A DNA stretch of 64,000 nucleotides from Halarcobacter sp. GTDB lineage: Bacteria; Campylobacterota; Campylobacteria; Campylobacterales; Arcobacteraceae. Numbering within the stretch: the stretch's first letter is position 1; each line of letters opens with the position of its first letter. Positions 42,913-56,326 of this stretch are shown here, piece after piece. Position numbers and translations under genes: made by a program. Under the pieces are notes generated by a model. It did no database searches. It was not told the origin of the DNA and saw only the letters and a list, made by a program, of their open reading frames with translations. Where the stretch lies: assembly GCA_048571215.1 (NCBI GenBank), contig CP182352.1, positions 1,888,001-1,952,000 of the forward strand. The letters run 5' to 3'.

Positions 42913-44868
42913 TCAATTCAAATTAGCTGATTCATAAGTTTTTTCTTCTTTAAACAACTTTTTATGTAATACCATAGAAATTGCAAATATTCCAAAACCT
43001 ATAAGATGCGTATTTTGAACTATTCCAAAATATGTATCAAAATTATATGCTTCATCTTCTGTCAATAATAAAATAGCAGCAATTGCAAAAGCTACCCTTT
43101 CTATTATCATCATCTTTTTATCCCAAAAACCTTCCATTACAATAGAAAAACACATTATTCCAAAAAATGCGAAAGTAAATACTTCTATTCTTTCAAACCA
43201 AGTACCAGTCACTAGTGGAGTAAAGGCAAATAACAAAGGAATAATATACATCCCCTTACCTATTTTCCAAGATACAAGTCCTGTTTGCATAGGAGGTGTT
43301 TTGGCTATGGCTGCTGCTGCAAAAGCTGCTAAACAAACTGGGGGTGTCAGGTTTGAATCTTGTGATAACCAAAATATAATCAAGTGAGCTGATAAAAGAT
43401 ACATAGCAACCTCTGGAAGTTCAATCCCTGCATTTACAAGTGCTGCCATCTCTGGGCTTAGCATTAGTCCCACAAGAGCTGGAGCAGATAAAACTGATAA
43501 TACAACATAAGAAGCAGTTACTGGTAATCCCATCCCTAAAATAAGTGAGGCGATTGCTATCAAAGCAATTGCTATAAGTAAAGAGTTTCCTGACCACTCC
43601 ATAATAAGTTGAGAAAAAGTTATTCCAACTCCTGAGATATTTATAACTCCAACAATAATACCAACAGCGATTAATAAAACCCCTGTTACAATCATATTTT
43701 GACTACCAAGTGCAAGGGCTTCTAATATCTCTTTTATACCCATTCTTTTATTTTTTGTTAAATATGAAGATAAAACAATAGTGATTATTGCAATTGAAGC
43801 TGCATAAGTTGGTGAAAAACCATAAATTAATAGTCCAACTAAAGTTGCTAAAGGGATAATAAAATGAAAACCTTCCCTTAATATTGGAAGAATTTTAATA
43901 TTATTCTCTTCCCCTTTTATATTATTCTCTTTTGCATGAATATGAATATAAAAAGAGATTGATGCAAAATACAGTATCGCTGGTAAAATTGAAACCGTAA
44001 CAATTGTCACAAAAGGTATATGGGTAATTTGAGCCATAATAAAAGCTCCCGCTCCCATAATAGGTGGCATGATTTGTCCACCTGTACTAGCTGCTGCTTC
44101 AACTGCTGCCGCAAATGTGCCTTTAAACCCTGCTTTTTTCATCATAGGAATTGTAATGGAACCTGTTGAAACTGTATTTGCAACTGCACTTCCAGATATT
44201 GTTCCCATAAGAGCTGAAGAGAATACTGCTACATGACCAGTTCCTCCTATATATTTCCCTGCTACTGCATTTGATACATCTACTATAAAATCCCCTGCAC
44301 CTGATTTTAATAAAAATGCTGCAAATAGTATAAACATAAATACATATGTTGATGAAATAGTAGCAATTGGTCCAAAAAGTCCCTCACTTGTATAAAACAT
44401 TCTATATAAAAATCTTTCATAATCCATACCAGCAAATGCAAAAATTCCCTCAAAATATTGACCTAAGAAAAGTATATATGAGATACATAAAACAATAATT
44501 GCTGGAATAATATATCCAGTACTACGTCTAACTATCTCTATTGCAAGGGCTATTGTCAAACACACAACTATAATATCACTTAGTCTCATTTGACCATTTC
44601 CAGCTGAATATAAACTCTCTTCAAACAAGACCATATATACAAATGTACACACTGATAAAATTGCTAAGATGATATTTAATATACTAACTTTATTATCATC
44701 CTTAGATCTTCCTAAAGTTAAAAATCCAAGTGAAGCCAAAAATGCAAAGTGTGCAGAGTTAAACCATAAGTCACTTATTCCTCCCCATATATTTATATAG
44801 AAGTGAAAAAGTGATATTAGTATTGCATATACAAAGGTTATTTCTTTAAAATATTTTATTTTTATCAT
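42913..44868 (-). CDS. TRAP transporter fused permease (4TM/12TM, TAXI type)
   Basis: GTISGSAVAN; EAAASTGGQIMPPIMGAGAF; LGMGLPVTASY; TPPVCLAAFAAA; AAGGA RBS before MIKIK. Confidence 0.92.
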   Translation of the reverse strand: MIKIKYFKEITFVYAILISLFHFYINIWGGISDLWFNSAHFAFLASLGFLTLGRSKDDNKVSILNIILAILSVCTFVYMVLFEESLYSAGNGQMRLSDIIVVCLTIALAIEIVRRSTGYIIPAIIVLCISYILFLGQYFEGIFAFAGMDYERFLYRMFYTSEGLFGPIATISSTYVFMFILFAAFLLKSGAGDFIVDVSNAVAGKYIGGTGHVAVFSSALMGTISGSAVANTVSTGSITIPMMKKAGFKGTFAAAVEAAASTGGQIMPPIMGAGAFIMAQITHIPFVTIVTVSILPAILYFASISFYIHIHAKENNIKGEENNIKILPILREGFHFIIPLATLVGLLIYGFSPTYAASIAIITIVLSSYLTKNKRMGIKEILEALALGSQNMIVTGVLLIAVGIIVGVINISGVGITFSQLIMEWSGNSLLIAIALIAIASLILGMGLPVTASYVVLSVLSAPALVGLMLSPEMAALVNAGIELPEVAMYLLSAHLIIFWLSQDSNLTPPVCLAAFAAAAIAKTPPMQTGLVSWKIGKGMYIIPLLFAFTPLVTGTWFERIEVFTFAFFGIMCFSIVMEGFWDKKMMIIERVAFAIAAILLLTEDEAYNFDTYFGIVQNTHLIGFGIFAISMVLHKKLFKEEKTYESANLN

Positions 44869-44956
44869 GATTATTGTCCTTAAGTTTATAGGATACATAA
44901 ATAATTTCTAATCACTTATGTATGATATAGATAAAGAGAGTAAAAACTCCCTTTAT

Positions 44957-45973
44957 TTACTCTATTAAAGATGCTGGTATTTTGACACCTTGCTCTCTAT
45001 AATATTTTGCTGCACCTTTATGTAAAGGCATTGGTAAACCATCTATCGCTTTTTGTAGAGACATAGCAAGTGTTGCTTTATGTACACTATTTAAAAATGG
45101 TAGATTTTCATAAATTGTTTTTGTTAAAAGATAAACTGTTTCTTCAGGAGTATCTTTTGTAACAACCAATAGATTTGGTTGAGCTATTGTATGGATATCT
45201 TTCGTTTGTCCAGGATAAGTTCCAGCTTTTATAGTAAATGGTGTCCAAACAGGATAATTTGCATCAATTTTTTCTAAATCTTCTTTAGAAAAATCCAATA
45301 CTCTTATGTTATCATTTCCAATTGAAGCAAAAGCATTTGTAACTGCTGATGTTGGAGGTCCTGATGGAGTTGTCATACCTTGTACTTTTCCATCTTGAAG
45401 TGCAGTTGAACTTGGACTATAACCTAAGTATTGTAAATCCATTTTATTGAAATCAATCCCAAGTGAGCTTAAAATAGTTTCAGATGAAACTCTTGAACCA
45501 GAACTTCTTCCACCTATAGAAAATCTTTCCCCATAAAGATTTTTCATATCTTTAATATTTCCTGTTTTTGCATATTTACTTTTTATAGTAAATTGTTCAA
45601 CATTTTGCCATAGCATTGTGATTGATCTAAGATTTTTTTGAGGATTGCCAGCATACTTATCTTTTCCTTGCCAAGCCATAGAACCAAATAAACCTTGTAA
45701 AATACCAAAGTTTACTTCCCCTTTCCCTAACATATCAACGTTTTCATTACTTCCTGCACTTGTGATTGCAGAAAATGTAATTTTATGTTTTTTTGCTAAT
45801 TTTATAGAAGCAATTGTTGCAATACCAACACCAACTGGATAATAAGTTCCCCCTGTACTAGCAGTTGCTATTACATACTTAGTCTCATTTGATGCAGCAT
45901 TTGCACCAGTTAGCATCGCTGCAGTTATTACTGAAGTTGCTAATAGTTTTTTAAAAATTGAAACATTTAACAT
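44957..45973 (-). CDS. TAXI-family TRAP solute-binding protein
   Basis: IATASTGGTYYPVG; SAGSNENV; PLHKGAAKYYRE; AAGGAG RBS before MLNVS. Confidence 0.92.
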   Translation of the reverse strand: MLNVSIFKKLLATSVITAAMLTGANAASNETKYVIATASTGGTYYPVGVGIATIASIKLAKKHKITFSAITSAGSNENVDMLGKGEVNFGILQGLFGSMAWQGKDKYAGNPQKNLRSITMLWQNVEQFTIKSKYAKTGNIKDMKNLYGERFSIGGRSSGSRVSSETILSSLGIDFNKMDLQYLGYSPSSTALQDGKVQGMTTPSGPPTSAVTNAFASIGNDNIRVLDFSKEDLEKIDANYPVWTPFTIKAGTYPGQTKDIHTIAQPNLLVVTKDTPEETVYLLTKTIYENLPFLNSVHKATLAMSLQKAIDGLPMPLHKGAAKYYREQGVKIPASLIE

Positions 45974-46012
45974 GTTACTCTCCTTTTTTTTTATGTAAAA
46001 GAAGTATAACAC

Positions 46013-46038
46013 ATTTTGAAACAAAATTGTTTCAAAAT
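46013..46038. promoter_or_regulatory. 12-bp inverted repeat upstream of the TAXI operon
   Basis: ATTTTGAAACAA-aa-TTGTTTCAAAAT. Confidence 0.5.
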
Positions 46039-46284
46039 TGTTTTAAATTTCAAAATTTATTTATAAAGTACGATTTTTAGGGATATTAATTTTTATAAAT
46101 TATATTACCTAGGCTCAAATTTGAAACAATTATCCCTTTATCTTTTATTTTTATCAAAGTTTCTAGTAGTATTTAATAAATCTACTCTATACTTACTTCG
46201 AGAAAAAAATTAAATAAAATACCAATTTAATCTTTAGTGTAATTTTAATTAATAGTTAATTTGTAGTTCTTTATTTAAATCTTT

Positions 46285-47147
46285 CTATTCTATATATTTA
46301 TTTCGTATTAGCAATGTCTTAAAAAGTATTAAACACATAATGACTAATAAAACTGCACTATATAAATATGTAGGTTCAAATAAGAATACTATTATCTGCC
46401 ATAAAGTAGCAAAAAAAGATGTAATAATAATCTTAAGAAAAACTCCTTTTAAAATAAAAAAAATCAACAAAATTAAACAAAATAAAAAGGTAACTAGAGC
46501 AAACCATAATAAGTCTTTCATAGGTGAGAATTTATTACTTTGTTCTGAGTGCATTTTAATACCTAATAACATTCGCCGTTCCATAATATAATGAAATGGA
46601 ATAATCAAATGATTTTTAAAACTTGTCCATAAATTTGTGCTTTTATTTTCTTGTGTTCTAACAATCAAGCGAGATTGTTTTTCATTTATACTTTTTACTA
46701 AAAATGTACCCCAATTCTCAAAACAAGGCTTCCTTCTGGTTTTACATATAGTACAGGAAAATTGTAAATACTTAAAGCACTTTCTTTATTTCTTGAGCCA
46801 TGGACAATATTCCCTACTTTTAAATTAGTGTTTTTAGATATATTTATAGTTTGATATTGGACTTTATTTCCTAATTCATGCTCAATAAAATCATAGCTAT
46901 AAAAACCTTGCCTATTAGCACCTAATTGCATAAGTAATTGCCAAACAATATGTTTATTTGCATCAATTTGTATTGCTCTTGTTGATGTGATGTTTAAATT
47001 ATCATTATCACCCACCATTAACATAGATATCTCTTCTTTTGAAGCTCCCCATTGTGTAATTATAGGTTCTATAAAAATAAAATATATTAACACCTGCAAA
47101 ACTAATATAAAAACTAAAACCAACAATTTTTTTATAAACTTGAACAC
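46285..47147 (-). pseudogene. Membrane-associated SRPBCC-like protein split by two frameshifts (ORFs 46698..47147 and 46285..46668)
   Basis: WGA..EE..GD..TRAI.I.A..VWQLLMQLG..RQGFYSY. The missing linker ENWGTFLVKSINE lies in a third frame and then joins SRLIVRTQ. Confidence 0.7.
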
Positions 47148-47164
47148 TATTTAAATCTTTGTTT

Positions 47165-47704
47165 TTATTTACTAGAAAGTACTAAATTTAATAAGAAATC
47201 ATCAAGTTCTTTATTTCTAGTACTTGATAATCTTGGTTGAATAAATAAAGTACCAAGAAATTTACAATAAATTAACAAAGTCATTTCTTCTCTTGTCTTT
47301 TCATCGGAACTAGGATTAAGTTTATCTTGAATATTTCGTAGTATTAAAATTCGTTCTTTATCAATCTTTTCCATATATGGTAAAACAAGTTCATTTCTAA
47401 GACCCCAGGCTCTAAATTCGATTTCGATATTTAAGTCTTTTGAATATATGGTATTATTTAGTAACTCTATTTGTTTTAAAGGATTATTTTCAAATTGTTT
47501 ACTTTTCTCAATAATATCCATTGTAAAAGTTTTGTACCAATACTCTAAAATCTCTTTAATAAATATTTTGTGGCTTTTAAAATGATGATAAAAAGAGCCT
47601 TTGGTAACTTTTAATTTTTTACAGAGTAAATCGATTTTTAATATATCAACACCATGTTTTGAAACTAATTTCAAAGATGAATCCATCCAATCTTCTTTTG
47701 TCAT
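47165..47704 (-). CDS. TetR/AcrR-family regulator
   Basis: HTH LCKKLKVTKGSFYHHF; AAAGGA RBS before MTKEDW. Confidence 0.92.
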   Translation of the reverse strand: MTKEDWMDSSLKLVSKHGVDILKIDLLCKKLKVTKGSFYHHFKSHKIFIKEILEYWYKTFTMDIIEKSKQFENNPLKQIELLNNTIYSKDLNIEIEFRAWGLRNELVLPYMEKIDKERILILRNIQDKLNPSSDEKTREEMTLLIYCKFLGTLFIQPRLSSTRNKELDDFLLNLVLSSK

Positions 47705-47720
47705 AATATTCCTTTTTGAT

Positions 47721-47750
47721 ATCATACCATACAGTATGGTATTGTGTCAA
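47721..47750 (-). promoter_or_regulatory. sigma70 promoter with overlapping palindromic operator (probable TetR autoregulation)
   Basis: TTGACA (47750-47745), 18-bp spacer, TATGAT (47726-47721); perfect ATACCATAC-A-GTATGGTAT at 47724-47742. Confidence 0.8.
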
Positions 47751-47848
47751 GAGAATATAAAATACTTATTCTATTGAATGTATGATTTCAATTTACAATT
47801 AATTGGTATCCTATCCACGGATTTTTGTAGAGTATTTTCTTTATTGTT

Positions 47849-47917
47849 AGGTAACGTTTAAAATGAGCTGATGAATTGCCCGCAGAGTAATTTATTGGCT
47901 CCTCTGTTTAGTTAGAA
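47849..47917 (-). repeat. attC site A (69 bp)
   Basis: Minus strand TTCTAAC TAAAC AGAGGAGC...GCTCATTT TAAAC GTTACCT. Confidence 0.88.
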
Positions 47918-48198
47918 GATACCGTACCATGTTGCTCCAATAAATAAAATAAATACCTGTATCAATGCAAGTAAACTTGATAAAGTAACTCCTAACCAAA
48001 TAACAATATTCTTACCGTATTTTTTGATATGAAAGTTTCCATAGATTATACTTAATGTTAAAAATATAATAACAATCAATGCCATCAATATAAAATTGAC
48101 TTGAATATTATCAATCCACTCACTTTTCCAATTAAAGAATATCACTCCGCTTAGAAAAGCCATTGTAAAAGGTATAAATTCTGAAATTTTTTTTCCAT
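47912..48198 (-). pseudogene. Cassette: near-identical copy of 48656..48946 with a 4-bp 5' deletion
   Basis: ATGG-A8-TTTCAG vs ATGG-AAAAACGAAAAA-TTTCAG; the remaining ORF is 47912..48163. Confidence 0.8.
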
Positions 48199-48204
48199 TT
48201 TCTC

Positions 48205-48273
48205 TTCTAACGTTTAAAGTGAGCCGATGAATTACCCGCAGAATAATTTATTAGCTCCTCAAATTTGTTATGT
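48205..48273 (-). repeat. attC site B (69 bp)
   Basis: ACATAAC AAATT TGAGGAGC...GCTCACTT TAAAC GTTAGAA. Confidence 0.9.
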
Positions 48274-48576
48274 ACCTGTTCCTAAGCCAAGTACACCAAT
48301 AAACGACCAAAACAGTATTCCAGCCACTGCTAAAATCTGACCATGCAATTTTTGATGATTACGAAATCCATAAATCATAGCCCCAAAGGAGAGCAGGAGA
48401 CCAAGAATCATTCCAAGTTTCGTAAACAATGGAAATGTGTAAAGCAATCCCATTGGTACACCAACTGTAGCTCCAAGAATAAACATGAAGCCAAGCCATA
48501 TATTTTCTTTAAAAACAAAAGAAACAATGCTCAATATGAGAAAGATGCTGACTAATGCAATAATTATTCTTTTGAT
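48268..48576 (-). CDS. Cassette: small multi-TM membrane protein (RBS points to an ATC codon at 48576)
   Basis: Track ORF 48268..48534 extends 14 codons in frame to AGGAG-N5-ATC; its stop lies in the R'' box. Confidence 0.65.
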   Translation of the reverse strand: MKRIIIALVSIFLILSIVSFVFKENIWLGFMFILGATVGVPMGLLYTFPLFTKLGMILGLLLSFGAMIYGFRNHQKLHGQILAVAGILFWSFIGVLGLGTGT

Positions 48577-48591
48577 GAATACTCCTGTGGT

Positions 48592-48661
48592 ACATAACGT
48601 TTTTCGTGAGCAATAATTTTCCCGCTAGGGTAAATTATTGGTCTCCTCGTATTTGTTAGAA
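48592..48661 (-). repeat. attC site C (70 bp)
   Basis: TTCTAAC AAATA CGAGGAGA CCAATAATTTACCC..GGGAAAATTATTG CTCACG AAAAAC GTTATGT. Confidence 0.9.
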
Positions 48662-48946
48662 GATGCCATTCCATGTTGCTCCAATAAATAAAATAAACAC
48701 CTGTATCAATGCAAGTAAACTTGATAACGTAACTCCTAACCAAATAACAATATTCTTACCATATTTTTTGATATGAAAGTTTCCATAGATTATACTTAAT
48801 GTTAAAAATATAATAACAATCAATGCCATCAACATAAAATTGACTTGAATATTATCAATCCACTCACTTTTCCAATTAAAGAATATCACTCCGCTTAGAA
48901 AAGCCATTGTCAAAGGTATGAATTCTGAAATTTTTCGTTTTTCCAT
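48656..48946 (-). CDS. Cassette: 96-aa three-TM hypothetical protein
   Basis: ATG lies just after GTTAGAA; stop TAA lies inside TTCTAAC. Confidence 0.8.
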   Translation of the reverse strand: MEKRKISEFIPLTMAFLSGVIFFNWKSEWIDNIQVNFMLMALIVIIFLTLSIIYGNFHIKKYGKNIVIWLGVTLSSLLALIQVFILFIGATWNGIF

Positions 48947-48952
48947 TTTCTC

Positions 48953-49618
48953 TTCTAACGTTTAAGTTGAGAAATAAGTTGCCCGTAGGGTAACTTATTT
49001 CCCTCCAATGAGACTGTGAAAGAACTCAGTCTCAATTTATATAAATATTCTACATAAAAACACCTAAAAATAATCATCCTAAAAATACTAAAATGTTATA
49101 ATATATTATATTTTAAAGGTGATTTATGGGTATATATAAACAAGGATTAGATAGAAATCAACAGTTACTTTTTCCACCAAGTTTGGATGAATTAATAGAT
49201 GAGAATAATATAACAAGAGCAATTGATTCTTATGTTGAGATATTAAATATTCATAAGCTAAATATAAAAACTAAAAAATCATTAATAAAAGATGGTCAAC
49301 CTGCATTTCATCCAAAACTACTATTAAAAATATATATTTATGGATATTTAATCTTGTGAAGCGAAGCGGTGCTTTAGCATCACTCTCTTTGAGAAAAAGT
49401 TATGTATAGCAATAAAAAATAAAGATTTAACTCAAATTACAAAAGATATAGAGGAATATATCTTAGTATTTGGACTTTATTTGGTTTATTTTTTACAAAA
49501 ATTTTTATATCTAAAAAATTTAAGAAAAAATGTCAGATATTCTGGAAGTTAATTTGGATTTTTACTGTAAATTTAGTTTATTTGGGACTAAATTCACAGT
49601 CTAAATGATTTGTTAGAG
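48953..49618 (-). repeat. attC site D, split by an IS (reconstructs to 69 bp: 48953-49010 plus 49608-49618)
   Basis: The rejoined site CTCTAAC AAATC ATTGGAGG GAAATAAGTT..AACTTATTTC TCAACT TAAAC GTTAGAA closely parallels attC F. Confidence 0.88.
49010..49603 (+). mobile_element. Internally deleted IS1182-family element inserted in attC D
   Basis: IR AGACTGTGAA (49011-49020) / TTCACAGTCT (49593-49602); AAT(G) duplicated on both sides; transposase N-terminus ..DRNQQLLFPPSLDELI..GQPAFHPKLLLKIYIYGY (49126..49359); probable C-terminal remnant 49406-49552. Confidence 0.85.
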
Positions 49619-49635
49619 GATTTTAGCTAGTACAA

Positions 49636-50106
49636 TTAATAATCAATGAAATCTGGAAAAGCAAATTGACTAATTTTCCACTCATTATTCTCTTGTTCAA
49701 GAAATATTTTAAAATAATTTCTTTGACGATTGTCAATCTTTGCTTTCATTTTCCCATAAGCAACAATGTTACCTTTATTAATGTTAGAAATATTTTCTGG
49801 ATAAAAAGCACAACTATAAATCTCAATTCCTTCGTAAAATTTGCTAAATTCATTTTTATATAATTCAAGGTGTGGTAATAATATTTCTTTAACAAAAGGC
49901 TTTTTTAGTGTAACAAGTTGTTTCAGTGATTTTATATCATTTTTTCTTATTGCAATTTCGAATTTTGTTACGATAATTTGCGTATTTTTTGTTGGTATTT
50001 TAACAAAATAGAAATATCCAAGGATCAAAAGTAAAGTAGAAAGAAAAATAAAAATTGCAGATACTTTTAATACCAGTTTTTTAATTGTACTTTCTTTTGA
50101 GTTCAT
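49636..50106 (-). CDS. Cassette: single-TM protein, possibly NTF2-like fold
   Basis: True start is probably MNSKES, just after GTTAGAG (the track's first 24 aa read through attC E); ends LEQENNEWKI. Confidence 0.75.
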   Translation of the reverse strand: MNSKESTIKKLVLKVSAIFIFLSTLLLILGYFYFVKIPTKNTQIIVTKFEIAIRKNDIKSLKQLVTLKKPFVKEILLPHLELYKNEFSKFYEGIEIYSCAFYPENISNINKGNIVAYGKMKAKIDNRQRNYFKIFLEQENNEWKISQFAFPDFIDY

Positions 50107-50114
50107 TTTTCTGC

Positions 50115-50186
50115 CTCTAACGTTTGTCATCACTGGTTTATGTGAAGCGCAGCGGAACACAAATCCAGTGCATGACATTGTTATGA
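50115..50186 (-). repeat. attC site E (72 bp, different sequence family)
   Basis: TCATAAC AATGT CATGCACTGGATTTGTGTTCCGCTGCGCTTCACATAAACCAGTGATG ACAAAC GTTAGAG. Confidence 0.9.
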
Positions 50187-50549
50187 ATCCTTTTTATGTT
50201 CAACGTATTCAACTATAGATCCATCTGGATGTTGTATTCGCATATTCTTACCTGTTGGAACTTTTTTAGGTTTTTCTAAAATGGGTATTCCATTGTCTAA
50301 AAAATAATTATGAAAATCATCTAATGAATCAACAAGGAAAGTTGTTTTTGTTGATTTAAATTTTTCCAAATCTTTTTCTTCACCAGCTAATAACAGGATA
50401 GAAGAAATCTGGACTAATTCTATATTCATTTCTTTGTATATAAATCTAAGAGAACAAGTTTTCTTAAAAATATTTTCATAGAATTTGATTGTTTTCTCTA
50501 ATTTTGAAGGATGCAAAAATATTCTTGTAAGTATTTCTTTGATTTGCAT
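50181..50549 (-). CDS. Cassette: VOC/glyoxalase-family protein
   Basis: FYENIF; FLVDSLDD; PKKVPTGKNMRIQHPDGSIVEYVEH. Confidence 0.85.
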   Translation of the reverse strand: MQIKEILTRIFLHPSKLEKTIKFYENIFKKTCSLRFIYKEMNIELVQISSILLLAGEEKDLEKFKSTKTTFLVDSLDDFHNYFLDNGIPILEKPKKVPTGKNMRIQHPDGSIVEYVEHKKDS

Positions 50550-50559
50550 TTATTTCTCC

Positions 50560-50594
50560 TCATAACTATTTATTCAACGAACATTATATATAAA
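50560..50594 (-). other. Candidate attI-like entry site 2 with TATAAT
   Basis: TTTATATATAATGTTCGTTGAATAAATA-GTTATGA; core complements this cassette's TCATAAC; no attC palindrome. Confidence 0.65.
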
Positions 50595-50827
50595 ATAGTC
50601 TGATATTATCAAATAAACAGACATAAAAAATATTTGTTTATTTGATAAAAATATTTCAAAATGCAATAATTTGATTCTTTTTTTACCAAAAGCATCAAAA
50701 TCTTTAAAATATAGATGAGCATTTAAAAATATTTTTGGCGTTATTTGAACAAAATGTCAGTTAATCGTAGGAAAAAAGTGTTAAATGTACATTATGCGGT
50801 TTATTTTCAAACCTTACATGTAAAAGT

Positions 50828-50989
50828 TTAGAGTTTATAGTTTCTTTCCCAACCAGAACGTCCAATTATAAAAGCTGTTGCTAAAGATGCATACTCTTCT
50901 TTAGATAACGAGTTGATATAATTTTTTATCTCATTTGATGACACTTGGAATTTTTGTATATTTTTAAAAATATTTTCTATTGGTTTCAT
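50828..50989 (-). CDS. 53-aa ORF or gene fragment (MKPIENIF...ATAFIIGRSGWERNYKL)
   Basis: Hand translation; ATGA overlap with the upstream stop; faint resemblance to DUF3775-type L..L..EE...L.A..IGR. Confidence 0.4.
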   Translation of the reverse strand: MKPIENIFKNIQKFQVSSNEIKNYINSLSKEEYASLATAFIIGRSGWERNYKL

Positions 50990-51534
50990 TTTTTTTCATT
51001 GTTATGTTTTGGCTTTGACGCTTCAAGGTAAAGTATTTGCTGAAACATCGTGTGAAACAAATGGCGCACCTCCGTTACAAAAAGTTTTGACAGCTTATCT
51101 TTCGATTTATGCGCTTTCCATATTTTATTGAAATTTTCAATAACGAGGCGTTGCTGCTCTACTGAAACCGAGTTTAGCGGCCTACTTTCTTGGCGCAAAA
51201 GAAGATTTTTTAACTCAACATCTATTACTCGATATTTTTCTGCATAGCAAAAATATGGAGTTTCGTATGATTCAACAAGAGAACTACATAAATCATCTAT
51301 TTTTTTAGCTACGCTTAACGTCTGCTCCTGTGTTTTTGTATCGAAAGCTGAAATAGTAGCTTCAGGTGTTGGTAATGCCTTCGCTAACGTTGATACAGAA
51401 TCAATAAATTTTGATACTGATATCACAATAATCCCAACGACAACCACAAAACCGACAGCCTTCAAGCTGAGTAGCTTGCCTAATATTTCCTTATGCGCTA
51501 CGACTGAGCCTTCATTTTTTACGTCATCTGACAT
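50986..51534 (-). CDS. Cassette: single-TM hypothetical protein, visibly more GC-rich than host
   Basis: AAGGA RBS before MSDDVK, after GTTATGT; matching ACATAAC at 51007-51001, but the rest of the attC is missing. Confidence 0.75.
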   Translation of the reverse strand: MSDDVKNEGSVVAHKEILGKLLSLKAVGFVVVVGIIVISVSKFIDSVSTLAKALPTPEATISAFDTKTQEQTLSVAKKIDDLCSSLVESYETPYFCYAEKYRVIDVELKNLLLRQESRPLNSVSVEQQRLVIENFNKIWKAHKSKDKLSKLFVTEVRHLFHTMFQQILYLEASKPKHNNEKK

Positions 51535-51549
51535 TGCGGATCCTTGTAA

Positions 51550-51618
51550 ACATAACGTTTGAGTTGAGAAATATTTGAGCCGCAGGGTCAAATATTTCTT
51601 TCCAATGATTTGTTATAT
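51550..51618 (-). repeat. attC site F (69 bp)
   Basis: ATATAAC AAATC ATTGGAAAGAAATATTTGACCCTGCGGCTCAAATATTTCTCAACT CAAAC GTTATGT. Confidence 0.9.
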
Positions 51619-52100
51619 ATTTTTGATTGCATTATAACAATACTTCTTGATAGGAAGATACCACTTAGTGAACCATATAAAAAACTAATAGCAATAATAA
51701 ACCCTAACTCATGTATAATAGATAATTCCCTTGCAAGTGCAACTCCAACAAAATATTTAATAAAGAATATAACTAGTATAAGAACCATAGGCATCCAACT
51801 ACCTGGAATATAAAAAACATCTTCAGATTCATTATATTTAATATTTTTAGGAAACGACAATTTTAATCCTATAAGTAAAAATATAAATCCGCCAATAAAC
51901 CATAGTCCTACTGGTGTTATCATTGTTCCAAAAGCAGAAAAAACACCAAATAATGATAGTAGGATCATAGCAATAGGTAAAGTAAATATTCTTTTTAATT
52001 TTACTTCTCTATCTTTTGTTTGTGTATATCCTAAAAAAACCAAACCTATAAACAATATAAAAACCCATATGGGTGTATGCTGAATTATTTCAAGAATCAA
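51588..52100 (-). CDS. Cassette: membrane protein, DUF6622-like
   Basis: HTPIWVFILF..LG..Q..DR; IPGSWMPMVLIL.IF..KY; ORF ends inside attC F. Confidence 0.75.
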   Translation of the reverse strand: MILEIIQHTPIWVFILFIGLVFLGYTQTKDREVKLKRIFTLPIAMILLSLFGVFSAFGTMITPVGLWFIGGFIFLLIGLKLSFPKNIKYNESEDVFYIPGSWMPMVLILVIFFIKYFVGVALARELSIIHELGFIIAISFLYGSLSGIFLSRSIVIMQSKIYNKSLERNI

Positions 52101-52115
52101 TCTTATTCCTTTTAT

Positions 52116-52150
52116 ATATAACTATTTATTAAACACACATTATATATATA
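52116..52150 (-). other. Candidate attI-like entry site 1 with TATAAT
   Basis: TATATATATAATGTGTGTTTAATAAATA-GTTATAT; core complements ATATAAC of attC F. Confidence 0.65.
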
Positions 52151-52433
52151 ATAACCTAAAAATCAATAAATATCATACAATATAAATGTCGTATATTAAA
52201 ATAAATACAAAGCCTTTAAATAAAGTGTTCATCAGTATTTTACTCTAAAAAATACTGCAATACATAATATTTTTTAAATATATTTTAACTTTCTAATATA
52301 GTTTTTATGTACGTTTTATATCGATATTTAGATGATAATAGTACATTTTGTATGTATATTAAGATAATATCGTAATAACATACATTATGTTATATTTATT
52401 AAGAAGTCAATTATTAATCCAATTTATAACTAA

Positions 52434-53144
52434 TTAGCCTCTTTCTATCAAATACCCCAAACCTTTTTTTGAAACAATAAAATCGTCATCAGATATCTTA
52501 TCTTTAACCCTTTTTATAACTGTACGCATAGTTGCATCGGAAGTATTGATATCATTCCAGATGAACTCTTTTAGATACTCTTTTGTTTTTATCTCTTTTA
52601 TATTTTTAACTAAAGCTTCTAAAAGTAGTTTCTCTTTTTTTGATAAGTTTACTAACTCATCATTTCTATATAGAAGATTTGTTTTTCTATTGTATTGATA
52701 TGTGCTATTTAAATCTATGACTTCTTCCTCAGGGCTTGCATTTGATTTCTCTTCTAGAACTTTTGATTTTACTTTTTTTAACATCTCCATCATATTTTTT
52801 ACTTCCAAAGGTTTTACAAAATATGAGATTACATTTAGATTTATCGATTTGAAAAGGTACTCTTCATCTTTATATGCTGATACTATTATAAATTTTTGGT
52901 CTTCATTTATATTTGTAATATGTTCTATCATAGATAATCCATCAAGTTTTGGCATTTGGATATCTGTTAAAACTAAATCAAAAGTTTTATTATCTTGGTA
53001 TGCCTTCTCATAAAGTTCCAAGCCCTCTTTCCCATCACAAGCTATTGATACTTTATCAAAAACCGTATCAAGGTAGAAACTTAATATCTCTCTTGCATCC
53101 TCTTCATCTTCAACTAATAATACTCTTGTAATATATTCATTCAT
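52434..53144 (-). CDS. OmpR-type response regulator
   Basis: LLVEDE; TDIQMPKLDG; KP; winged-helix tail (KGLGY). Confidence 0.93.
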   Translation of the reverse strand: MNEYITRVLLVEDEEDAREILSFYLDTVFDKVSIACDGKEGLELYEKAYQDNKTFDLVLTDIQMPKLDGLSMIEHITNINEDQKFIIVSAYKDEEYLFKSINLNVISYFVKPLEVKNMMEMLKKVKSKVLEEKSNASPEEEVIDLNSTYQYNRKTNLLYRNDELVNLSKKEKLLLEALVKNIKEIKTKEYLKEFIWNDINTSDATMRTVIKRVKDKISDDDFIVSKKGLGYLIERG

Positions 53145-53161
53145 TTTATTATCCTGTGAAG

Positions 53162-55771
53162 TTAAATATTTAGTGTGATAATAAACTTCACACCATCTTC
53201 TATATTTTCTACTTCGATTTTTCCTTTCATATTAGTTTCAATAATTGACTTTGTCATATAAAGTCCTATTCCTGTCCCCTGACATTCAAACTTTGTTGTA
53301 AAATATGGCTCATAAATCTTGTATAAAATCTCTTCATCTATATTTCCTCCATTGTTTGATATTTCCAAGATTAGCTTAGTATCATCTTTGTGAAGTGATA
53401 TATTAATCAAGGCTTCAAAATCCTCTTTCTCTTTTTTTGCAAGTAAAGCGTCTTTTGCATTATTTAAGATATTTAATAAAGCTTGTTTTAGTTCATTTTC
53501 ATAATTAGTTATCTCTATCTTTTCATATTTAAAATCTATTTTGATATTTTCACTTTCATATTGGTTTCTAACCATATCCAATAGTGTATCAATAGACTCA
53601 TTTACATAAAACTTATTTTGTGTTTTAGATGGTTTGTAAAAATTTCTAAAATCATCTATTGTTTCACTCATATACTCTATATGTTTATTTGCTTTGTTCA
53701 TAAATTTATCAAGCTTTTCATCACTTACATCTTTATTTTTATAATTATCTCGTAAGAATTGAAGTATCAATGATACGTTATTTAGTGGTTGTCTCCATTG
53801 GTGGGCTATATTACCCAACATCTCTCCCATGGCTGCTAGTTTATTTTGTTGGATTAGGATTCTATCTTTGTCTCTATTTTTTGAAAGTTCCTCTTCAACT
53901 TTTAATTTAAGTTCCTCTTCACTAAGTTTTATTTTAGTTATATCATTTAAATAACCGTAAAATTGGCTTACCTGCCCTGAATGGTTTTTTATAAGTATTA
54001 CCCTACTTGATATCCATCTTGTCTCATTTGCAGCGTTAATCATTCGACAAATAAAAGTAAAATTTGGCAGGTCTTTTTTTACAGCTGCATTAATAGCAAC
54101 TTGTACCTTGTCAACATCTTCTTTATGAATAAGATCCATAAACTTCATATTCTCTTGTTCAAACTCTTTTTTACTATATCCAAAAGTTTGAATACTATTT
54201 GAGATATATTGCACTGACAAATCTTCATTATTTAGAAGTTTAAAAATTACAATTTTTCCATCTTCAACTAATAATTCAACATCAAGTAGTTCTTTTTTCA
54301 TTCTTTTATTTTTGTCTATATCCATAGACATCATAAGCATTCTATCTAGTTCACCATTTTCATCTAAAAAAGATTTACCCCTTGCTAAAACCCATTTAAA
54401 ACCTTCATTTTTTGTCTTTAATCTATACTCACAAATAAAAGTATCATCACCTTTTGCAAAGATTTTATCAAAGAGTTTTTCGACCTTTACTTTATCTGCA
54501 TTATGAATCAAATCAAACCAGTCCGAAAAAGTCAAAACTTCATCTTTTTCATACCCAAACATATCTAACCATTTATCAGAAAAATATATTTTTTCTGTCT
54601 TAAGATCAATATCCCACAATCCATCATTTGAAGCGATAATTGCCAGCTCAAATCTTTTTTTCCAATGTATTAAAGATACTTTTCCATCTTCGAGTTCATC
54701 ATTATATTCTGTAATAATATTTTTAATAAAATTTGTAAAAAGATATGTAAGTAAAATAAGAAATCCAGCCCCAACTAAAATATACATTAATATTCTAAAA
54801 AGTAGATTTCTATACTCCTTTTCGATTTTATAAATTGTATCTTTTAACTGATTTTCAATAATATCTTTATCATAAATAGTGGAAACCAAAAAATCAAATT
54901 TATCATAAAAATAACTAAAGTTTTTAAACTCATCATTGTAATCAAAACTATTCAAATAATGTTTTACGATTTCATATGATTTATTATTTTTTCTATTCTT
55001 AAATATATCACTAGAATCTTCATATCTCTTATTGCCATTAAAGTTATATGTCTTTTGAGAAATAATATCATAAAACCATATTGGAAAATTCTTATTATTG
55101 ATTGCAGTTATAATAGCTGTTTTAGTAATCTCTTTAATTGAATTTATTGTGGAAAAAGAGCCAATAAAATACTCTTTATTGTTGATAGTTAATTTATCAA
55201 AAAAACTCAATCTAACTGTTCGTGCAACATCATCTTTCCAATATTGAAGGTTATCATTACCTTGAGAATATATATATTTTAAAATAAACTCTTTGTATTT
55301 TTTATTTTTATAACTATAAATTAGATTTCCTAAATATAAAATTGAATTTTCACCATATAAAATTTTTAAATCATCTTTTGTAAAAATTACGATATTTAGA
55401 TCATTTGTATTTTCTATATTTTTTATATAGCTATCCAAGTTTTTTTTATCTTTTAATTTATTTGCTTGTATAAATCCAACTACTTTATAAGTGATATTTT
55501 TAAGGTGTATCTCTTCTTTAGAAAACCTATCTTTTAGCTTTTTGTCTATATAAGATCTAAATGCATTTATCTCTTCTTTTTTAGTAAATTCATAGTTTAA
55601 AAAGTATTTTTGTTTTAAAAGGTCTATTTCTCTACTTTGTTTAGAATCTAATATAAAAAAAGTAATAAGAAAAGATAATAGAGCAATTACAATTATAAAA
55701 ATAAGTGGAATCTGTGAATATAATCGCTCTATATCGTGTAAGCTATATTTTTTTTTGTTTTTTAAGATCAT
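53162..55771 (-). CDS. Sensor histidine kinase with periplasmic sensor and two PAS domains
   Basis: Two TMs; ASNDGLWD PAS; IAHQWRQPL H-box; NNGG; GTGIGLY. Confidence 0.93.
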   Translation of the reverse strand: MILKNKKKYSLHDIERLYSQIPLIFIIVIALLSFLITFFILDSKQSREIDLLKQKYFLNYEFTKKEEINAFRSYIDKKLKDRFSKEEIHLKNITYKVVGFIQANKLKDKKNLDSYIKNIENTNDLNIVIFTKDDLKILYGENSILYLGNLIYSYKNKKYKEFILKYIYSQGNDNLQYWKDDVARTVRLSFFDKLTINNKEYFIGSFSTINSIKEITKTAIITAINNKNFPIWFYDIISQKTYNFNGNKRYEDSSDIFKNRKNNKSYEIVKHYLNSFDYNDEFKNFSYFYDKFDFLVSTIYDKDIIENQLKDTIYKIEKEYRNLLFRILMYILVGAGFLILLTYLFTNFIKNIITEYNDELEDGKVSLIHWKKRFELAIIASNDGLWDIDLKTEKIYFSDKWLDMFGYEKDEVLTFSDWFDLIHNADKVKVEKLFDKIFAKGDDTFICEYRLKTKNEGFKWVLARGKSFLDENGELDRMLMMSMDIDKNKRMKKELLDVELLVEDGKIVIFKLLNNEDLSVQYISNSIQTFGYSKKEFEQENMKFMDLIHKEDVDKVQVAINAAVKKDLPNFTFICRMINAANETRWISSRVILIKNHSGQVSQFYGYLNDITKIKLSEEELKLKVEEELSKNRDKDRILIQQNKLAAMGEMLGNIAHQWRQPLNNVSLILQFLRDNYKNKDVSDEKLDKFMNKANKHIEYMSETIDDFRNFYKPSKTQNKFYVNESIDTLLDMVRNQYESENIKIDFKYEKIEITNYENELKQALLNILNNAKDALLAKKEKEDFEALINISLHKDDTKLILEISNNGGNIDEEILYKIYEPYFTTKFECQGTGIGLYMTKSIIETNMKGKIEVENIEDGVKFIITLNI

Positions 55772-55834
55772 TTAATAACCTGTTTCATAATTGTTTCAAG
55801 TGATACAATTATATTGAAACTTTACTAAATATTG

Positions 55835-56326
55835 CTAATTAATTAAAAATTGTCCTACTGATCTATCTTTTTTAAGTCTGTTATGCTCTACAACAACCCC
55901 ATGCATTGAGATATAAATTCCAGCTTTAATATCTGCATTTAAAAACCCCAAAGCTTGTGAGAAATTCATAGTTGCTTCAACCTCATCAATACTCATTGGA
56001 ACCATAGCACCAGTGAAAACTATCTTTTTACCTTCGATTTTTTCCTCAAAAAACTTTGAAGTTAAATCAACGGTATCTGTTCCATGTATGATTATGATTT
56101 TATCACTTGTGCTGTTTTTTACCTCATCTAAAATAGTTTGTCTATCATCATCTGTAAAATCCAAACTATCTTTAGAAACTATATTTTTAATATCAAAAGT
56201 TACATTATGACAAGATTTTATTATCTTGTCTAAGGCTATATTATCACTAGGAACTTCAAGTTTCCCTTTGATAGGGTTATATCTTTTATTAAAAGTTCCA
56301 CCAGTATTTAGAACTGTTACGGTCAT
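55835..56326 (-). CDS. Short asparaginase-domain protein
   Basis: TGGT and HGTDT catalytic motifs; TGAMVP; only 163 aa. Confidence 0.85.
   Translation of the reverse strand: MTVTVLNTGGTFNKRYNPIKGKLEVPSDNIALDKIIKSCHNVTFDIKNIVSKDSLDFTDDDRQTILDEVKNSTSDKIIIIHGTDTVDLTSKFFEEKIEGKKIVFTGAMVPMSIDEVEATMNFSQALGFLNADIKAGIYISMHGVVVEHNRLKKDRSVGQFLIN

Follow-up and report, generated by a model that had tools for sequence, protein, structure and literature searches.

Clusters of attC sites that lack integron integrases (CALINs) are, in the portions of Neron et al. 2022 (PMC9024848) consulted here, described as about as common as complete integrons. The consulted portions of this and an earlier paper present them as cut off from the cassette promoter (Pc) and as donors, whose cassettes may re-insert at the attI site of an integron (PMC4889954; Neron et al. 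2022, PMC9024848). Their cassettes can be excised or captured in trans, and rearranged CALINs lose Pc, according to the relevant passages of PMC4889954, PMC9024848, PMC9668308 and 10.1101/2025.06.18.660453; the accessible part of PMC9892861 holds nothing further on CALIN capture in trans or on attI searching. The origin and activity of CALINs are open because attI, as the same passages state, is not searchable outside classes 1-3 (PMC4889954, PMC9024848).

Here we describe a cassette region at positions 47849-52122 of the window, by which we mean the whole 64,000-nucleotide stretch analysed, from a Halarcobacter genome (CP182352.1, positions 1,888,001 to 1,952,000). It consists of seven cassettes behind two platforms, a platform being an attI site with its promoter region; a platform without an adjoining integrase gene (intI) is called a satellite. 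By definition the region is a CALIN: it contains six attC sites with a covarying family structure, where at least two are required, and neither intI nor an intI pseudogene lies nearby, the window platform retaining no intI remnant. In a complete integron intI adjoins attI, which is the case neither in the window nor at the same locus in the related genome G002. The evidence points to integrase-less arrays of this kind as receivers, and sequence comparison makes it probable that the two platforms with their seven cassettes form a receiving satellite, one IntI loading about 22 platforms in trans.

As far as CALINs are characterized in the sources above, the region resembles them in having at least two attC sites, no nearby intI, fewer than ten cassettes and an intI elsewhere in the genome, as in half of CALINs; it differs in that arrays of the window type keep attI and promoter region and appear to receive cassettes, and in the presence of 22 platforms at 11 loci from several integron lineages. 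With sedentary chromosomal integrons it shares a divergent intI/attI pair at guaA, related attC sites of 69-72 nt and cassettes of mostly unknown function, but those have one long array, whereas here there are many short attI-headed ones. Insertion at ordinary genomic (attG) sites, giving single attC sites lacking integron integrases (SALINs), likewise places cassettes away from intI by IntI acting in trans, as described in the accessible part of Loot et al. (10.1101/2022.09.11.507474); here, in contrast, the target is an attI homologue with a promoter region, reused for different cassettes, and not a chance site. Class 1 integrons flanked by integron mobilization units (IMUs) or MITEs (miniature inverted-repeat transposable elements) are, in what we could consult of PMC3575428, also defective integrons relocated by non-autonomous means. 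Unlike these, the window island shows no flanking repeat pair, no IMU- or MITE-type flanking repeats being among the 20 direct and 25 inverted repeat families shown for 44000-56000; the repeat upstream of other platforms is one-sided, and it is a target of the insertion sequence (IS) family IS110 and not a pair of IS ends.

Two attI-headed arrays and one distant integrase

Bare coordinates are window positions, and coordinates preceded by a genome handle are genome positions. G000 is the window's own genome, which is complete and has the main contig C1; G002, G003, G006 and so on are relatives' genomes, and L with a number is a single locus. The core of a cassette is the GTT... at the crossover point G|TT, its inverse core the ...AAC after the gene.

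The cassettes are all on the minus strand and co-oriented, with attC sites at 51618-51550, 50186-50115, 49618-48953, 48661-48592, 48273-48205 and 47917-47849, as the original prediction had placed them. Also as predicted, every 5' core and the inverse core that follows its gene are exact reverse complements; such pairing in 7/7 cassettes is reached by 4 of the 5040 permutations of the window cores. An inverse core after the gene together with a GTT core at the far end is found in six of the seven. The attC core consensus is GTTRRRY, from which several window cores depart after GTT. The claim of intact cassette boundaries fails at cassette 2, which has only the inverse core (R''), followed by 78 nt that show no fold (z 0.06).

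attC sites were detected with nhmmer profiles and a stricter rule; generic fold-based scans were noisy, missed weak sites and were dropped. The bottom strand folds better than the top strand in 5/5 intact window attC sites, with z below -3 in three of them (cassette 1, -5.9; cassette 5, -4.99; cassette 3, -3.05) and weak folds in cassettes 6 (-0.82) and 7 (-0.73). Bulges appear in the single folds for cassettes 3 and 6. Taken over 18 related attC sites in G000, the helix of the R box and two inner ones have 93.7% of cells paired (slid controls, 43-52%), with two-sided changes in 9 of 14 pairs (0/500 shuffles), the structure being derived from the same alignment on which pairing was scored; the consensus leaves eight columns unpaired on each side between the R box and the inner stem. 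Core matching, the permutation test and attC covariation all support the view that the cassettes were integrated by IntI.

Not every cassette starts at an attC. Cassettes 1 and 3 follow two related AT-rich sequences ending AATAAATAG|TT, so that the region is two attI-headed arrays in tandem. Platform 1 (52122..52414, minus strand) reproduces the intergenic region between intI and attI in full, without intI coding sequence, its core G|TT lying at 52122. Its sequence from 52414 to 52120 matches the intI-attI region of the same genome (G000:896200-896495) at 80.7% over 296 nt, and platform 1 matches the intI-linked region of G035 at 82.5% over 280 nt. Thus the roughly 310 bp before the response regulator gene, described earlier simply as a stretch where intI would sit, does lack intI and is itself intI-attI intergenic DNA. 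Platform 2 (50566..50811, minus strand; core G|TT at 50566) is 82.6% identical over 69 nt to the intI-linked attI and 71% over about 250 nt to a module of G102. A 28-nt attI motif sits 244-302 nt upstream of the intI start at 15 of 18 intI loci of relatives. Because of this placement and the homology to the intI-linked site, we regard the AT-rich G|TT sequences of the window as this family's attI; the sequence changes exactly at G|TT, where the core of the first cassette matches.

The platforms also carry candidate promoters, identified by consensus match, in which a TATAAT element 17 nt before the crossover is the candidate Pc: on the minus strand, TTGATT at 52166 and TATAAT at 52144-52139 in platform 1, and TTGATA at 50612 with TATAAT to 50583 in platform 2, the latter matching in 11/12 positions. 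A promoter scan returned 21 sites, versus 13.9 in shuffles.

G000 encodes one integron integrase, at G000:895-896 kb, beside a gene that we take from its sequence to be guaA-like. This IntI has 320 aa, no stops, and scores 398 bits against a cut-off of 265. Its gene lies 1.04 Mb from the window, in which, in agreement with the original prediction, there is no tyrosine recombinase: none of the genome's PF00589 or TIGR02249 matches falls there. At G000:C1:896493-896674 and 898384-898565 (L075) are two near-identical 181-nt cassettes with no open reading frame (ORF) and with a long internal palindrome, one of them in first position of the intI-linked array. At the intI locus shared with G002, intI is only 83.5% identical (G000:895235-896371 against L083:7442-8567) and the upstream module is of a different type; the resident integrase platform itself therefore seems to have been exchanged.

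Platforms across the genome and the family

A census by profile and pattern searches, which gave 22 copies in the first search and one in the second, found 23 attI copies at 11 loci of G000; one stands beside intI, and 22 are therefore integrase-less. Candidates at 1124379, 697078, 3257092 and L091+158 were rejected as not attI. A downstream attC candidate, sought without reference to the core, is present for 19 of the 23 copies, and at 16 of these 19 the attI core is the exact complement of the first attC inverse core (shuffle mean 2.1, maximum 9 in 100,000 shuffles); 15 of the 16 are satellites. A cruder test in five genomes gave 19/46 against a shuffle mean of 1.9, an undercount because it misses cassette 1 by one base as well as ORF-less and two-gene cassettes.

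The exact 28-nt motif occurs 12 times in G000, though the rest of the modules are 66-94% alike. Only the first 12 intI codons are kept at six platforms, each joined to the same repeat family. The best matches of the platforms to intI-linked regions are with G017 (91-92%), G024/G019 (88-94%), G006 (89%) and G035/G000 (82-88%). A tree of 29 modules, from which nine short or distant ones were left out, groups the platforms with the intI-linked regions of G017, G019/G024, G006/G026 and G035/G003/G000, and a single clade for all G000 platforms is rejected by the approximately unbiased (AU) test (p-AU 1e-8). By this tree, at least four integron lineages, and not the resident one, gave rise to the platforms; their origin as mere duplicates of the resident attI is rejected on the tree and the clade test.

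A mosaic repeat of about 500 nt precedes 17 of the 23 motif hits in the same orientation; both window platforms lack it. It occurs at about 35 places in G000:C1 (for example 2744100-2745300 and 1978800-1980700; L081, L080), is rich in small hairpins and is arranged head to tail in groups of one to four units; these groups often stop at an attI platform. Rfam gave nothing near a cut-off for this repeat. Two IS110-family elements, in three and four copies (G000:C1:383540, 424880, 969587, 1467773, 1705111, 2521627, 2826742), lie inside it, each at a fixed position in the six copies read, and resemble IS110 elements that target repetitive extragenic palindromic (REP) sequences. As the IS110 copies sit inside the repeat at fixed points, we rejected the idea that the repeat represents IS110 ends carrying platforms. 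An IS-end-like GAGACTGT start upstream of nine related platforms was not supported either, being clear in two of the nine. One Y1 transposase gene is present in G000, at 2560 kb. Platform orientation relative to the replichores is uninformative, since 13/23 platforms are on the leading strand and the skew extremes disagree with the position of dnaA.

In the family, which we take to be Arcobacteraceae, 130 genomes of at least 95% completeness were surveyed. The exact attI motif is present in 69 of them, two or more times in 46, with 164 matches in total, and the reversed motif used as a control gave none in all 130. An intI match was found in 35/130 genomes, a single one in 33 of these 35. Of the best 29 copies of the window platform in relatives, six stand beside intI or a large piece of it, three beside a stub, and 20 are bare. 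The same decayed intI start, about eight codons long, is found with the same following sequence at nine bare platforms (L169, L172, L174, L175, L177, L179, L180, L183, L184) that differ in genome and gene context; this shared start suggests an integrase-less platform that spread as such.

Cassette turnover and its explanation

Eight relatives were read at the window locus. In six of them the response regulator gene stands directly before the transporter promoter, which is the empty site, and a metagenome contig shows the same join. In G020 the spot is filled with several IS fragments (L049, G020:C20:33000-50000), so the site may be an insertion hot spot. G002 aligns with the window without a break at 96% from the response regulator into the platform, which has a 105-nt internal deletion there and no intI; most simply, therefore, intI was already absent when G000 and G002 split. 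The platform of G002 carries one cassette, encoding a HaeIII-type nuclease/methylase (restriction-modification) system, with core GTTAGGA and inverse core TCCTAAC, and is followed by the same right remainder as in the window. The interval from tetR to the response regulator, whose comparison among strains had been proposed, thus varies, with another cassette at the same attI in G002.

Two further loci shared by G000 and G002 (635 kb, 2745 kb) also differ in content within conserved flanks. The first 450 nt after an intact G002 attI were found in G000 in 0/12 cases; at the one G002 attI with a mutated core (A|TT), the first cassette is identical in G000. A copy of cassette 7 (98.3% over 301 nt) lies at G000:1708079-1707781, another intI-less locus, and begins at GTT after another attC. 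Two other intI-less loci hold copies of a 723-nt cassette that are 96% identical, and a cassette 3.7 kb downstream of the intI-linked attI of G002 matches it at 95%. Metagenome runs X1-X6 were also searched, X5 coming from another study. In X5, cassette 1 stands behind an attI of the platform 2 type and cassette 3 ends at 50566 within another contig context; in X6, cassette 6 ends at 48599 in another context. Runs X1-X4, which may derive from the source sample, left 51728-53200 uncovered; the joints in them are compatible with repeats of the genome itself, and a cassette circle could not be made out.

The original prediction had left it between an array serviced in trans and an orphaned one. 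Since an intact intI is present elsewhere in the genome and the locus is not invariant, service in trans is favoured. The region is no bare orphan: the prediction had overlooked the attI/promoter platforms, their spread through the genome and the family, and the fixed attC target of the IS described below. With such platforms present, the locus could receive cassettes and not just donate them. Foreign integrons or platform pieces would arrive by horizontal transfer and lose intI, a loss that would keep attI and the promoter region. The resident IntI would recognize the conserved attI core region of the foreign platforms, and this single enzyme, encoded near guaA, would act in trans at about 22 platforms, putting cassettes in and taking them out. 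Each platform would drive its first cassettes, so that many cassettes would be promoter-proximal at once. The anatomy, the homology, the one intI, the core matching, the variable content, the shared cassettes and the mixed ancestry are what we observe; from these we infer the arrival route, the cross-recognition of foreign attI, the promoter activity and the present-day activity.

A number of observations weigh against this account of loading in trans. Among the 23 attI copies, three lack the core G, four have no detected attC and three have a non-matching first candidate, and the module tree was built from 250 nt of AT-rich DNA. Apart from the IS debris of G020, a filled locus was found in G002 and in no other relative; the attC of G002 does not fold end to end (-6.4 kcal/mol), and the control with the mutated core is a single site that lies within a 98.6%-identical segment. 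In genus g11 intI is found in 0/36 genomes and the attI motif in 12/36, so the presence of a platform does not prove service. The IntI types of relatives are 65-92% identical to that of G000, and the resident enzyme may therefore not use every foreign attI. There is decay in the window, too, in the cut attC of cassette 2, the IS in the fourth attC, the frameshift of cassette 7 and the two weakly folding attC sites.

Whole arrays might instead have been swapped between strains by homologous recombination through the conserved platform and right flank, IntI having built them elsewhere and not acting here. The compared loci of G000 and G002 range in identity from 72 to 99%, a patchiness such as frequent exchange would leave, cassette-bearing platforms occur in genomes without an intI match, and the 18-site attC family and the 500-nt repeat offer homology. 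However, a new core-matched cassette at an intI-less attI needs IntI in trans somewhere, unless the donor keeps intI here, and none of the eight relatives read has intI at this locus; moreover, G|TT is the break point of the cassette 7 copy as well as of the copies of cassettes 1, 3 and 6 in the metagenomes. We therefore regard such swapping as unlikely. The usual reading of a CALIN, a dead relic of an integron that came in with its own intI, has since lost the gene and by now either decays or does no more than release cassettes, would account for the 12-codon intI stubs at six platforms, the truncations and IS insertions, and the bare state of 20 of the best 29 copies of the window module in relatives. 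It is hard to reconcile with an intI-less left junction that G000 and G002 have in common while sharing no cassette, with 12 exact 28-nt motif matches despite the 66-94% likeness of the remaining modules, and with 96-98% identical cassettes at separate loci, and we think it has little chance of being correct. Seeding at attG sites that grew into an attI-less cluster is a route demonstrated in E. coli, according to the accessible part of 10.1101/2022.09.11.507474, and the site is empty in six relatives; but both entry points are homologous to intI-linked attI (296 and 69 nt), which contradicts this origin unless the module is not attI, and makes it highly improbable. Loading in trans by the one resident IntI thus remains the explanation that we prefer.

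Cassette contents, an IS in attC, and wider meaning

All cassette features are on the minus strand. Cassette 1 (51556..52121; cores GTTATAT 52122 / ATATAAC 51618) encodes a 170-aa DUF6622 membrane protein (52100-51588; PF20327, 95.5 bits); a 137-nt piece of the end of its gene (90%) lies at G000:C1:429024-429160, near two more attI copies. Cassette 2 (51001..51555; GTTATGT 51556 / ACATAAC 51007) has a 182-aa ORF of no family (51534-50986), and its attC is truncated immediately behind the inverse core ACATAAC (51007-51001) and joined there to a fragment (50837..51000) of a gene that is whole in G163 (79% over query 10-174). Behind platform 2, cassette 3 (50121..50565; GTTATGA 50566 / TCATAAC 50186) encodes a 122-aa glyoxalase/VOC-like protein (50549-50181), with PF12681/PF00903 at E about 1e-3, below the cut-off; as a FosB resistance gene it scores 19 bits against a cut-off of 171, and no resistance call was made. 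Cassette 4 (48959..50120; GTTAGAG 50121 / CTCTAAC 49618) holds a 156-aa ORF (50106-49636).

Cassette 5 (48598..48958; GTTAGAA 48959 / TTCTAAC 48661) encodes a 96-aa membrane protein (48946-48656) and is 94% identical to cassette 7 and to G000:1708079. Cassette 6 (48211..48597; GTTATGT 48598 / ACATAAC 48273) encodes a small membrane protein (stop at 48268), the long frame of which has no standard start after the ribosome-binding site. Cassette 7 (47855..48210; GTTAGAA 48211 / TTCTAAC 47917) is a second copy of cassette 5 with a frameshift near its start, in an A run, relative to cassette 5 and the G000:1708079 copy; decay or assembly error may explain both irregularities. After the last crossover follows a fixed right-hand remainder (47778..47854), common to G002 (88% over 67 nt), and then tetR and two ORFs without attC (46285..47725, minus strand), which are inside the inserted stretch and absent in G002. 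What stands there in G002 is 185 nt that include part of the mosaic repeat. PADLOC matched 0/6 cassette proteins, and Rfam had no match in the window.

The attC of cassette 4 is split by an internally deleted IS1182-family element (49010..49603, plus strand) of 594 nt with a 77-aa transposase start at 49126-49359 (NF033551, E 9e-13); a full-length relative of 528 aa scores 349 bits against a cut-off of 270. Elements of the IS1182 family have terminal inverted repeats and a short target duplication. The window copy ends G/TAGACTGTGAA, sits just inside the attC inverse core and has the terminal inverted repeats AGACTGTGAA, with a 3-nt ATT target repeat on both sides; in several other copies the flanking triplets differ. 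The target is fixed: across 12 genomes, 28 distinct right ends were counted, and 26 of them are 9 nt after TAAC, compared with a genome frequency of 0.004, and the transposase opposes the cassette direction wherever read. Most of 114 IS "matches" were short AT-rich noise, and the strong ones were followed. The two flanks of several copies come from different attC sites, which, going by these junctions, suggests IS-mediated exchange between arrays.

Elements known to target attC are IS1111-attC, cited in PMC11187229, and group IIC-attC introns (PMC3001079), which share with the window element insertion at one position and in one orientation in attC. The window element differs in being an IS1182 element with terminal repeats and a short target repeat, neither a DEDD RNA-guided transposase nor an intron. 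No IS110 match was found for it, and it lacks the DEDD transposase that defines the IS1111-attC group.

We found no report of attI in this family, of multiple integrase-less attI platforms or of IS1182 in attC, judging by listings and the openings of abstracts, with subscription journals, ISfinder and supplements outside the scope of the search; these loci may appear as CALINs in the genome tables that supplement the IntegronFinder papers. None of the consulted portions of PMC4889954, PMC9024848, PMC9668308 and 10.1101/2025.06.18.660453 describes one integrase with many attI-headed satellites. As attI is here a findable 28-nt motif, the question of whether such arrays are dead, donors or receivers becomes testable. 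More tentatively, the family might run a distributed integron, collecting foreign promoter-attI platforms, stripping intI at recurring points and operating satellite slots under one IntI, with about 20 cassettes promoter-proximal and an IS1182 lineage specialized on attC. The IS1182 element would be a third, independent attC-targeting route beside IS1111-attC and group IIC introns. If loading in trans is true, the integron is a genome-wide network and not one locus, and the attI network would not be bound by the rule limiting expression to the first cassettes of a single array. Relatives that have platforms and no intI would then be reloadable whenever an integrase passes through.

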